DNA of 14,693 nucleotides from a virus. Taxonomy: Duplodnaviria > Heunggongvirae > Uroviricota > Caudoviricetes. The stretch lies in IMG/VR virus record IMGVR_UViG_2541047965_000006; one strand, given 5' to 3'. A program made the position numbers. Positions within the stretch are counted from its first letter, which is position 1. Each line of letters starts with the position of its first letter. Below are positions 9,001 to 12,000 of this stretch, in pieces.

Positions 9001-12000
9001 GGCTGGCAGGTTATCGCAGACAGCGTAATCAGTGCGCGAACGGCACATCCTGTCGGGAACAGACGCAAAACCACAGAGCAACAGCAAAACGCCGGAGTAC
9101 AAAACCCGCAACCGTCATGGGGACAACCATCACAGAGTCACAGCGGTGATATGTTCTCCGATGATATCCCGTTCTGAATGACAACGGAGCAAGCCATGAA
9201 CCAGCAGACCACACAACAGGACCAGACCACACGCAGAGCCACGGGACGCACATCATGGCGACACATGACGAAGCGGCAGCGGAAGAACCGGAAGCGAATA
9301 AACCGACTTACAGAATACTGGCCCGACCTGTTCAGCACGGAGAACCCGAAGCCCGTCAGTTCTGGTGTGATACATGATATGTTACGGGATGCAAAAGCGC
9401 GTGATCTGCCGATGGGTCATGGCGTATTACGTGGAGCGTTAACCTCATATCTCCACATGACACGATACCTTAAGGCGATTATTGCTGGTGGCGCACGGTA
9501 CAACCTGAAGGGGCAGCCTTGCGGTGAGGTGACACCGGATGAAAAGGCCATGTCACGGAAGTTACTTAAACGGCGACTGGAACGGAAGAACCGGAAAAAC
9601 AGCCAGCAGCAGGTAACCGGAGATGATGGCAGTGATAAGCGACAGAGTGGCACAGAAACTTGAGGAACGCGGTTTATGGCGTCGTGCGGCGACCCGATGG
9701 GGTGAAGTGCTGTGTAACGCTGAAACAGACAGTGAACGCGAAGAAGCAGCACGACGGCGTGCATGGTGTATCAGTAAAACCCGTCGGGAACCTGAACGGC
9801 AGGTTACCTTTGGTGACGTGAAAAAGGCCGCAGACAGGACGCTGGCAGAGATGGGAATTGATCCACAGGAAGAGTGGAGAAATTACAGCTTCAGTGACGC
9901 AGGTGACGATTCAGCGCTACCGTGATGCGCATCTCATCACCATATTTGCTCAATTATCGCGATTCGCTATAATCACCACCGAAAGGCCGTTGACAACGGT
10001 TTTTCAGCGCTCATTCCGGTGGTCCCCCACGCATCCATCGGGATGAGTGAACGACGAAAACATCACGGTGATTTCGTCATGCCGCGATAAGAATGCGCCT
10101 CTTTGGGCAACTGGAGCCCTCTGTACAGCGGGTTATCGCGGCAGGCTGTAACGGGCGCTCATCTCTGGGCAACTGAAGCCCCCTGTACAGAGACCCGTTA
10201 CGGCTGACCCTGAAGGATTTGCCCTGTGCAATTGAAGCACCCCGCAGAGTTCTTCAGGGTTTTTTGTTGCCCGTTCACCAGCGCAACCAGCACCCTTACC
10301 AGGTTGAGCGTATCACACTCAGTACATCAATGTCGGAGTTACCAGTATGACCAGAAAGCCGTGGCGTGCGGGTAAGGATTTATCTGCCGTTGTAGAAAAT
10401 ATGGAGATTGGCACAGGACAGCGGGGCGATGGACGTTACGCATTTGTGACCCGCGAAGAACTTGTAGGCCTGAAACTGGCACGTCGGAGGGCCGGAGGTG
10501 GCTCATATACCCTGAATCCAGGGGTTGATGTGGATGGTATGTTACCGGCACCGGAATACCCTACAAAACCGCTGAACTTTGTGGCGACAGGTGGATTTGG
10601 TTCAGTTCTTCTTGAGTGGGGCGTCGCAAATTACCGGGGGCATTCACTGACTGAAATCTGGCGAGGAACGGAAGATAACCTTGCAGATGCGGTACTGGTG
10701 GCAACCACACCGGGACAGGTTTATGGTGATCCGGTTGACCCCGGCTGGTCAGGGTTTTACTGGATCAGATTTGTGAACTCGGCTGGCATCAATGGCCCGT
10801 GGAACGATACAAAGGGAACAGAAGCAAAAACTCAGATAGGTGTTCAGGCCGTTATTGACCAGATCCGTGAAGAGGCGGCTAATTCGCCGATTGTGTCAGA
10901 GTTGCGTAATGAGATCAAAGATGCCCGTGGACAGGCGGTGAAGGAGGCGGGGATCCAGACAACAGAGGTTGTCGGGAATCTCAGAACAGAAACGCTGGAA
11001 ACAATTGATGGGATGGAAACCCGAATCGACAAACTGGACAAGGAAGGCGGTGAGGCTTTTCTGGCTATGTGGTCAAAAAAAGCGGGTGTTGATGGTATCA
11101 CGGCAGGGATCGGAATTGTCGCGGGAAAAGACAGTGAAGGCCAGCCTGTAAGCCAGGTAGCAATATCGGCGTCGCAGTTGTTTGTATTCGATCCGAATAA
11201 TCCGGGTACCACAGCGTATCCGTTTGCTGTCTCTGGTGGCAAGGTGGTGATCCCGAAGGCGATGATTTATGACGCGGTGATTGAGACGTTGACATCACGT
11301 AAGGTTGTGGCGGATGAAGTAAAGGCCGGTGTGAGTATCACATCTCCTTTAATACGAAGCGCGACCATCGAGAACGGGAACTTTCAGATTGATTCTGTGG
11401 GCAACCTGCGCATTGCGGACGGGTTCAGTGTAACGGCTCAGGGGCTACTAACGGCCCGAAATGCGTATATCAGCGGTCATATTGATGCGAATTCAGGAAC
11501 GCTCAATAATATGACAATTAACGAGAACTGTCAGATCAAAGGGACGCTGTCAGCCAACCAGATTAAGGGCGATATTGTCAAAACAGTGAGTAAGGCTTTC
11601 CCCAGAACTGGGGGGGGCGGCTTGATTCAAGCGAATGGCACAATCAGAGTCGTAATTTCTGACGACCAGTCTTTCGATCGGCAAATTATTATTCCGCCGA
11701 TTATCTTCATAGGACATGAGTCTTATAGAACGACGGGTGGTGAGAATGGTTCAGAGACTCACAGGAAGGCCTACACTCGTCTGACTGTACGGAAAAACGG
11801 AGTAACGATTTATGACGTAGAAACGCTTAATAACGCACAGGCCTACAGTGACATTTTTGATATGCCTGCTGGTGGTGGTGACATGCAACTGGAGTTCTCA
11901 GTGGTGTCAGATCTACTCGAATATCTCACTAGCAAGGCCATCAGTAATCTACAGGTTATCGTAGTGAAGAAAGGCACCGCAGGCATCAGTATCAGCTGAG

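Follow-up and report, generated by a model that had tools for sequence, protein, structure and literature searches.

A hairpin array in an Escherichia coli phage satellite

The window analysed here, the whole 14,693-nucleotide (nt) stretch of the IMG/VR virus record IMGVR_UViG_2541047965_000006 (Caudoviricetes), is by its gene content a phage satellite of Escherichia coli of the phage-inducible chromosomal island (PICI) or P4 type. A 420-nt gap separates its PerC-family gene from a tail-fibre-like gene, and this gap is occupied by an array of tandem hairpins. Its sequence is that of a stand-alone structured non-coding RNA gene of ~290 nt (9979-10266, + strand), in which a promoter, a U-tailed hairpin, two further hairpins, three modules of ~60 nt and an intrinsic terminator follow each other from 5' to 3'. 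An original prediction, made from the sequence alone, had described these repeats, stems and conserved interiors, and all of them were recovered at the positions it gave. It had also held that no open reading frame (ORF) lies in the gap. Small mechanical ORFs do overlap it (9858-10046 and 10219-10350), but relatives of the array differ by a 65-nt module insertion and by 4-nt indels, and the region is therefore not coding.

The promoter consists of a -35-like hexamer (TTGCTC, 9946-9951, + strand), which agrees with TTGACA at three of six positions and is invariant in seven aligned loci, and, after a 16-nt spacer, a perfect -10 hexamer (TATAAT, 9968-9973, + strand). Transcription is predicted to start at ~9979-9981, and the -10 hexamer lies 7 nt before the first hairpin. 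Among the seven aligned loci, six share an unchanged promoter block and the seventh (L125) differs by a single A-to-G change in the spacer; the promoter pattern was matched in all 12 loci examined. It had been announced as near-consensus, which it is not, given the poor -35 hexamer; its support comes from this conservation. As a separate observation, the spacer and -10 hexamer (TTATCGCGATTCGCTATAA, 9954-9972) are 74% identical over 19 nt to the junction of modules M1 and M2 (TTATCGCGGCAGGCTGTAA, 10133-10151), which suggests that the promoter may derive from a duplicated module junction.

The first hairpin (M0, 9981-10005, + strand), defined from the fold and from alignment with relatives, consists of 11 bp followed by U5 and resembles an attenuator or terminator. 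The small U-tailed hairpin of the original prediction is present, but it proved to be the collapsed remnant of a full module. In relatives, the full M0 carries the same GGGCAACTGGAGCCC apex as the other modules and is homologous to allele C of the phage hairpin described below; in the window, a 45-nt deletion has removed the interior and a perfect U-tailed hairpin has been retained. Two hairpins identified by folding follow. H1 (10008-10049, + strand) has 15 bp, and CC-to-UU changes in relatives are tolerated there as G.U pairs. H2 (GACGAAAACAUCACGGUGAUUUCGUC, 10053-10078, + strand) has 10 bp and is 100% invariant in seven aligned relatives, none of its ten pairs ever varying; it includes the palindrome ATCACGGTGAT and may be a site for a protein or for processing. 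For neither H1 nor H2 was a phage homologue found by BLAST against phage genomes. At 90% complementarity, the 5' end of the RNA (9975-9984, ACCACCGAAA) and the 5' arm of H1 (10014-10023, TTCCGGTGGT) offer a possible pairing, which may rival the M0 terminator hairpin and is not obviously conserved in L002-type relatives.

The modules proper combine unrelated outer stems with a common interior. M1 (10080-10143, + strand) has the outer stem TGCCGCGATAA/TTATCGCGGCA (10080-10090/10133-10143, 100% complementary) and, starting at 10105, the apex GGGC-AACUGGA-GCCC. M2 (10144-10205, + strand) has the outer stem GGCUGUAACGGG/CCCGUUACGGCU (with GCTGTAACGGG/CCCGTTACGGC, at 10145-10155/10194-10204, 91% complementary), the inner helix UCUCUG/CAGAGA and the apex GGGC-AACUGAA-GCCC (from 10167). 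In M3 (10206-10265, + strand), a stem ACCCUGAAG.../...CUUCAGGGU (with ACCCTGAAG/CTTCAGGGT, at 10207-10215/10252-10260, 100% complementary) encloses the apex GUGC-AAUUGAA-GCAC (from 10226) and is followed by U6 at 10260-10265. The change of the inner hairpin from GGGC/GCCC to GTGC/GCAC and the extra helix of M2 are as had been described, and so is the double role of M3 as an intrinsic terminator: the stem and U-run are kept in all relatives, although M3 was not called by a simple terminator scan, its loop being longer than 8 nt. The conserved 34-nt interior recurs at 62-nt spacing, and is 85% identical between M1 and M2, whose stems are unrelated; the spacing of the 15-bp core is 59-62 bp. The core GCAAYTGRAGC occurs three times in the window and, with at most one mismatch, five times against 1.17 expected, a number reached by none of 200 shuffles. 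RNAfold of 9975-10270, the check proposed with the original prediction, gave -134.1 kcal/mol (z = -7.06), and none of 200 shuffles was equally stable.

Conservation of the array among satellites

Depending on the query used, the array locus was found in 114-159 of 5,426 complete E. coli genomes, and the hosts listed are almost all serotypes of Shiga toxin-producing or enterohaemorrhagic E. coli (STEC/EHEC; e.g., O157:H7, O111:H8, O103:H2 and O145:H28). In every locus fetched, the array lies directly 3' of a primase-SSB-FinO-PerC block. It usually holds five modules, in the order M0-H1-H2-M1-M1b-M2-M3. The three modules originally predicted are those of the window, but the window is a reduced copy, in which M1b is absent in addition to the collapse of M0.

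An RNAalifold consensus of seven loci, trimmed to the transcript, comprises 126 pairs with 98.6% of cells paired. Compensatory double changes occur at 10 pairs and none of 500 shuffles reached the observed values, whereas slid controls, in which the 3' partner was shifted, gave only 36-46% pairing. Many one-sided changes turn G-C into G.U, so that pairing survives on the + strand only; in each of the seven arrays, the stability advantage of this strand over the - strand is 15-28 kcal/mol, with 107 against 60 G.U pairs. Substitutions in homologues keep, rather than break, the proposed pairs, which bears out the prediction of a conserved structured + strand RNA with compensatory changes. One alignment of module classes, made with MAFFT without anchors, set the M2 stems out of register and was excluded from the covariation counts and covariance models. 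A scan of genome contigs with a gapped two-core pattern was likewise discarded: it returned 120 stretches whose listed taxa are almost all unrelated, one of them (L026, Pantoea) inside a coding gene, the pattern being too loose.

Of 12 loci, 10 have a convergent gene 3' of M3, and L127 has its nearest co-oriented gene ~400 nt on; the co-oriented tail-fibre arrangement is unique to the window among these 12. Taken together with its own promoter and U-run hairpin, the convergent downstream gene in most loci argues for an independent RNA gene. A conserved ORF of 128 aa, which matched no known family, converges on the array (L003 3445-3831, - strand, with equivalents in L002, L124-L126 and L252-L255). 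Its stop codon overlaps the M3 U-run, and its transcript would therefore read antisense into the array unless terminated.

With regard to novelty, an Rfam 15 cmscan of the whole window returned only C4 and isrK (4256-4444). The stretch 9900-10360 and the orthologous locus L003 gave noise only at E<=10, and the phage locus L128 nothing; no described family matches the array, as the original prediction had supposed. Nor was a published description of the array RNA found in the literature, including by its core sequence.

A matching hairpin in the gp47 gene of Stx phages

When phage genomes were searched with the array by sensitive BLAST, 183 records were matched, mostly Shiga toxin (Stx)-converting phages of the Sepvirinae. 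Each match is to a single module and lies on the strand opposite a giant gene annotated as an LPD5/LPD38/MuF-C domain protein, with the motif present essentially once per phage contig and at the same position. The gene belongs to the phi24B gp47 family (product of 2,811 aa), and gp47 is abundant in virions and has been proposed as an ejection protein (bioRxiv 10.64898/2026.04.10.717836). As judged by sequence comparison, the modules are diverged antisense copies, each of one variant of a hairpin in the gp47 gene. This antisense homology, missed in the original prediction, changes the most likely purpose of the RNA.

The phage hairpin occupies the linker that immediately follows the MuF-C domain, ahead of a DarB-like region. 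On the coding strand, its apex GGGC-UUCAAUU-GCCC encodes G-L-Q-L-P, and its stems encode variable residues. Copies collected from IMG/VR fall into the allele classes A, A', B, C, C' and D, which belong to different phage lineages and whose stems are unrelated but each self-complementary: GCCGCGATAA in A and A', AACCCTGACGG in B, GCCGTTGATGG in C and C', and AACCCTGATGG... in D (L239/L303), which has a GUGC/GCAC apex. The apical 15 nt alone are common to all classes, the internal loops being class-specific, and a distant homologue of the C-terminal part of gp47 has no hairpin (L313). Sites of the hairpin include L128 2916-2976, L129 4001-4072 and L130 4001-4040, as well as L239 and L303. It stands exactly at a mosaic boundary: between lineages, gp47 identity is 57-75% in the part upstream of the hairpin, and the part downstream is almost the same. 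An A-run directly precedes the hairpin on the coding strand, and alleles A, B and C have a stop in the -1 frame within their 5' arm, which resembles a frameshift or truncation signal. A programmed -1 frameshift in gp47 was set aside, given a spacer of 0-4 nt, a canonical slippery heptamer in D only and a G.U bias favouring an antisense RNA (see below).

The satellite modules correspond to individual phage alleles, the array bringing together one module for each class. M0 is 91-93% identical to C; that of L002 is 91% identical to C', and both it and M0 of L126 correspond to C' down to the AGGC/GCCU apex. M1 is 84-88% identical to A (88% in the window), and 95-97% identical to A' in L125 and L127. 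M3 is 78-82% identical to D (82% in the window), including the GUGC/GCAC apex and the U-run. M2 is related to B in its interior only (75-78%; 78% in the window), and M1b is a distant relative of A (75-77%).

In cofolding models, the predicted intermolecular pairing is strong and allele-specific, with free-energy differences (ddG) of -33 to -72 kcal/mol for cognate pairs and mostly ~0, at most -22, for non-cognate ones. M1 reaches -53 to -57 kcal/mol with A/A' mRNA, compared with 0 to -22 with the non-cognate B, C and D. The full-length M0 of L001 reaches -72 kcal/mol with C, the truncated M0 of the window ~-0.9. M3 pairs with D alone (-33.5 kcal/mol), and M2, with its B-like interior, gives -25.

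The 7-nt satellite loop reads A-A-Y-U-G-R-A, with positions 1, 2 and 5 invariant, 4 and 7 nearly so, C or U at position 3 and G or A at position 6. Among 38 distinct modules, AACUGGA was counted 16 times, AAUUGAA 11 times and AACUGAA 8 times. The degeneracy at positions 3 and 6 matches the YUNR pattern typical of antisense recognition loops, a U-turn motif reportedly described by Franch et al. in 1999. The loops form two haplotypes (C..G and U..A) and one recombinant class (C..A), with U..G absent (L001-L003, L124-L127, L252-L255). Among close relatives, each type of module switches between these variants, a pattern suggestive of gene conversion by which modules exchange their core.

The phage hairpin as a candidate RNA gene

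The hairpin within gp47 probably encodes a small antisense RNA of its own, made up of a weak promoter, the hairpin and a U-run. Over eight phage alleles, 27 G.U pairs are formed in the antisense orientation versus 5 in the sense orientation, and for types C and D the antisense fold is favoured by 5-12 kcal/mol. Two D alleles differ at five pairs, with pairing preserved in the antisense orientation only. A U-run follows every allele in that orientation; the coding strand there consists of Lys/Glu codons, and the amino acids are variable. In every allele, a -10-like hexamer (TATTTT, TACTTT, TATCTT or TATATT) lies exactly 7 nt before the hairpin base, with TTGCGA or TTGCGT 17 nt further upstream. 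These phage hexamers fall in conserved codons and are therefore not independent evidence. The geometry of the satellite matches that of the phage (TATAAT, 7 nt, then GAAAGG). Homology between the satellite promoter and the phage upstream region was considered and not established, as only the hexamer positions coincide and identity is ~47%.

Co-occurrence with gp47 phages

The gp47 flank, queried with the hairpin excluded, was present in 400 of the 5,426 E. coli genomes and the satellite-specific H1-H2 stretch in 114, and a joint query matched 419. Derived arithmetically from these three counts and not corrected for shared ancestry, gp47 is present in 95 of the 114 array-bearing genomes (83%) versus 305 of the 5,312 others (5.7%). 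Per-record match counts were unusable for co-residence, since neighbouring modules cross-match. No gp47 gene was found among the ORFs and domains of the window itself.

Proposed mechanism and alternative explanations

The array has the look of an RNA directed at helper phages, as a weapon or as a sensor. The reading we prefer, tentatively and at slightly less than an even chance, is a trans-acting, multi-allelic antisense RNA directed against the gp47 mRNA of the helper. A promoter of its own would drive transcription of the array RNA, the apical loops of which (7 nt, AAYUGRA) would nucleate loop-loop contacts with the UYCAAUU loop of the gp47 mRNA hairpin, of a resident or an incoming phage, and pairing would then spread through the allele-matched stems. 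In whichever Sepvirinae lineage occurs, the duplex would reduce gp47 expression through cleavage or blocked translation. By analogy with the role of FinO for FinP/traJ, the FinO/ProQ-domain protein may make the U-tailed hairpins more stable and accelerate pairing. If the phage hairpin is a small RNA (sRNA) gene, the satellite array would imitate, in multi-allelic and over-expressed form, the regulator that the phages themselves possess. A more far-reaching version, which we regard as somewhat unlikely, is a heritable, RNA-only device for phage defence or helper control: a library of antisense hairpins, one per gp47 allele class, which would silence any lineage present and from which phages would escape by changing the stem while their own embedded antisense sRNA stays functional. 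If true, the arms race between satellite and helper would be fought wholly via RNA stem alleles, with the logic of clustered regularly interspaced short palindromic repeats (CRISPR) but without Cas, and the number of infectious Shiga toxin phages released by a STEC strain would be directly affected.

Several observations weigh against an antisense role. Complementarity aside, the transcript, the RNA-RNA pairing and its effect are all deduced from sequence, and a promoter scan made no call either at the satellite promoter, which with its weak -35 stayed below threshold, or in the phage. With ~5.6 kb of a translated ORF ahead of it, the hairpin is unusually placed for antisense control. In the 5,426 E. 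coli genomes and the phage collections, no phage counterpart was found for M1b or for the outer stem of M2, the copy in the window is without M1b and without the pairing capacity of M0, and the five-module layout is fixed, with no visible gain of new alleles. As for the loops, the phage Gln codon is always CAA, so every sampled phage loop needs U as its partner at position 3 of the satellite loop, whereas 24 of the 38 satellite loops (AACUGGA/AACUGAA) have C there; moreover, the commonest phage loop complement, AAUUGGA, is never present in satellites. Perfect loop-loop complementarity is therefore not maintained. Finally, STEC lineages carry many mobile elements together, which bears on the uncorrected co-occurrence with gp47.

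Some of these features would also be produced if the array acted in the same sense as the phage hairpin, as a mimic or protein sponge. The antisense-strand sRNA of the phage would then do another job, and the satellite, with four to five extra copies per transcript, would titrate the protein bound to it or supply its function, the stems differing only for local folding and to prevent recombination. A conserved apex on variable stems is the design of a multi-hairpin sponge, and loops that do not exactly track those of the phage, modules without a phage partner (M1b, M2) and a fixed layout are all in keeping with it, as is the resemblance of the phage copies to self-contained sRNA genes (G.U pairs, U-run and -10-like hexamer). 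We nevertheless consider it unlikely, because it comes with no candidate protein (FinO-domain proteins recognise the base and tail of terminator hairpins, not the loops) and with no Rfam or CsrB-like match, because just the apical 15 nt are shared between classes with differing internal loops, and because it leaves unexplained why the satellite modules track the interiors of A versus A' and C versus C'. Reversing the direction of action is less probable still. Here, the abundant late gp47 mRNA would act on the satellite RNA. Either the satellite would sense the late transcription of its helper, pairing being what opens the M0 or M3 terminator or frees a bound protein and so turns on satellite functions, or the phage copy would, as a counter-measure, soak up the satellite RNA. 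PICIs and P4 generally require a helper-derived induction signal, the cognate pairing energies are large, and M0 and M3 carry their U-runs at attenuator or terminator positions, M0 of the window still being a perfect terminator hairpin after its deletion. Read-through would, however, have no obvious output, given the genes downstream (convergent in 10 of 12 loci, ~400 nt away in L127), M1, M1b and M2 have no terminator role, and the G.U bias in phages points to selection on an antisense-orientation RNA rather than on an mRNA hairpin.

Two further explanations dispense with a trans-acting RNA. The modules might be patches of DNA homology by which a phage recombinase joins the satellite to phage DNA in replication, for homology-facilitated packaging or transduction, the hairpins being passive. 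Homology-facilitated plasmid transduction occurs in other phages, the modules offer 60-70 bp at 80-97% identity to several phage lineages, and the co-occurrence with gp47 phages is strong. It remains a very improbable account, as it explains neither the compensatory changes and strand asymmetry nor the conserved promoter and terminator, the conserved non-homologous H1 and H2 or the modules without phage counterpart, and a crossover would break an essential phage gene. The last candidate, and one which the sequence comparison largely refutes, combines a cis-acting leader or attenuator of the tail-fibre gene, an option raised in the original prediction, with double-stranded DNA protein sites (iterons or operators) ~62 bp apart. 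In the window, a co-oriented gene does follow the terminator by 80 nt, and the 15-bp core is regularly spaced. A leader fails on the relatives: in 11 of 12 loci the next gene is convergent or ~400 nt off, and in the window homology to the other array loci stops ~25 nt past the terminator U-run, which places the tail-fibre gene beyond a recombination junction. Double-stranded DNA sites need no changing inverted repeats, one-strand G.U substitutions or U-run.

Relation to known systems and implications

If the array is an antisense RNA, it has parallels with FinP/traJ and FinO of F-like plasmids. FinP is a stem-loop antisense RNA with a 3' U-tail; a complementary hairpin lies in the target mRNA, as it does here, so that recognition would start loop to loop; and a FinO-domain gene is carried by the same element, with allelic variants that would define specificity groups. 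However, FinP is encoded in cis, opposite the traJ 5' untranslated region, whereas the array RNA is on another replicon than its presumed target, is 77-97% complementary to it, and would act deep in a coding region. It also differs in carrying three to five modules of different alleles per transcript, in a specificity that would reside in stems and not loops, and in that FinO-PerC is found without the array in relatives.

A satellite sRNA acting in trans on helper transcripts has a precedent in SviR, an sRNA of the Vibrio cholerae satellite PLE (a PICI-like element), which regulates mRNAs of the phage ICP1 (bioRxiv 10.1101/2022.04.08.487710). SviR represses helper mRNAs, including one for a structural protein, through short seed pairing with several targets. 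The array has no sequence or structural relation to it and would consist of long antisense copies, each matched to an allele, of a single site within one gene. The C4/P4 CI RNA and IsrK are, like the array, structured regulatory RNAs of P4-like elements and are both present in the window. C4 targets lie within its own element, and the array matches neither model at E<=10.

The likeness to CRISPR is one of logic only, namely one transcript composed of units derived from, and complementary to, phage variants, on an element in conflict with phages. The array has no repeat-spacer layout, no cas genes (the domain scan found no cas domains among the window proteins) and no sign of ongoing acquisition; all its units address one site, and recognition would be by RNA-RNA hairpins. 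With the CsrB/RsmZ sponges and ToxI, it shares tandem hairpin or repeat units under one promoter and terminator, with a conserved apex and variable stems. The GGA that marks CsrB/RsmZ loops is absent from about half of the array loops, and Rfam gave no match. Unlike type III ToxI units, the modules are not near-identical, and no toxin gene follows, the next gene being the tail-fibre-like gene or the convergent 128-aa ORF.

Antisense RNAs, FinO-assisted pairing and satellite sRNAs acting on helper mRNAs are thus already known. What appears new from the sequence is a tandem array of allele-matched antisense hairpins on a satellite, homologous to an element in the helper's ejection-protein gene, with a mechanism that is unproven. 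We know of no earlier RNA-based helper interference in E. coli satellites, nor of a multi-allelic antisense array, and if the mechanism is true, it would to our awareness be the first of both kinds. Whatever the mechanism, this is a new conserved structured RNA family with clear covariation, common to a satellite and its probable helpers. The finding also points to an unnoticed sRNA gene antisense within phage gp47. Shiga toxin genes are spread by Stx-converting phages, on whose induction the release of the toxin depends; an RNA targeting the ejection protein would be a natural brake on infectious Stx phage output and a handle for manipulating it. For the orphan FinO/ProQ-domain proteins of mobile elements, the array is a concrete and testable candidate RNA partner.

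The FinO/ProQ and PerC neighbours

The FinO/ProQ-domain gene (9178-9663, + strand; Pfam PF04352, E = 3.9e-20) has as its closest homologue an E. coli protein with 99% identity. It adjoins the array in all 12 array loci, ~300 bp upstream of the RNA, with the PerC-family gene (9623-9925, + strand; Pfam PF06069, E = 2.6e-29) directly 5' of the RNA promoter. Its product may serve the array as an RNA chaperone, and the cognate protein-RNA pair put forward in the original prediction is plausible on this circumstantial evidence. However, the partnership is not obligatory: two distant satellites, L248 (4812-5028) and L251 (4818-5022), keep overlapping FinO-PerC genes followed by two ordinary terminator hairpins, without the array, and the FinO-domain protein must therefore have another RNA partner there. 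These more distant satellites carry an AAA_25 or D5-type replicase.

Other features of the window

The remaining domain set is that of PICI/P4 elements of ~10-15 kb, with an integrase, an AlpA-like regulator, a primase/replicase and no capsid or terminase, and the same gene set has been described in E. coli PICIs (PMC11773190). The integrase (1-1083) is followed by a weak AlpA/HTH match (1559-1816; AlpA and HTH_17 both under the Pfam gathering cut-off), Rha (1956-2654), an Ash-domain match, DUF4222 (5130-5420), a DUF927 primase (5417-7546) and SSB (8731-9177), upstream of FinO and PerC. The Ash-domain match is to a mechanical ORF of 358 aa (3611-4687), which overlaps two RNAs. These are IsrK (4256-4332, + strand; Rfam RF01394, 51.0 bits against a gathering score of 50) and, directly 3' of it, a C4/P4-CI-type antisense RNA (4357-4444, + strand; RF01695, 77.6 bits), which together form the immunity-type RNA region of the satellite (4256-4444).

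The 3' stem arm of C4 (4427-4436) and M2 (10182-10191) have the 10-mer CCCUGUACAG in common, in the same sense, against ~0.03 expected, and M1 has CUGUACAG in common with it. This could be coincidence or reflect a shared partner, which is conceivable in view of the complementarity between the 5' arm of C4 and the module internal loop. A link of the array to the C4 immunity RNA was rejected, given the same-sense orientation of the 10-mer and the presence in L001 of an array without C4 or IsrK in the 12.4-kb stretch scanned.

Downstream of the array, the tail-fibre-like gene (10347-11999) is co-oriented with it, starts 80 nt past the terminator and encodes a 550-aa product with lambda-J C-terminal receptor-binding and tail-tip domains. 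The start of this gene matches prophage genes elsewhere. It represents a tail-fibre gene fused onto the satellite. An antiterminator Q gene lies at 12960-13361, and relatives of the array locus also carry Q, ~2 kb downstream.

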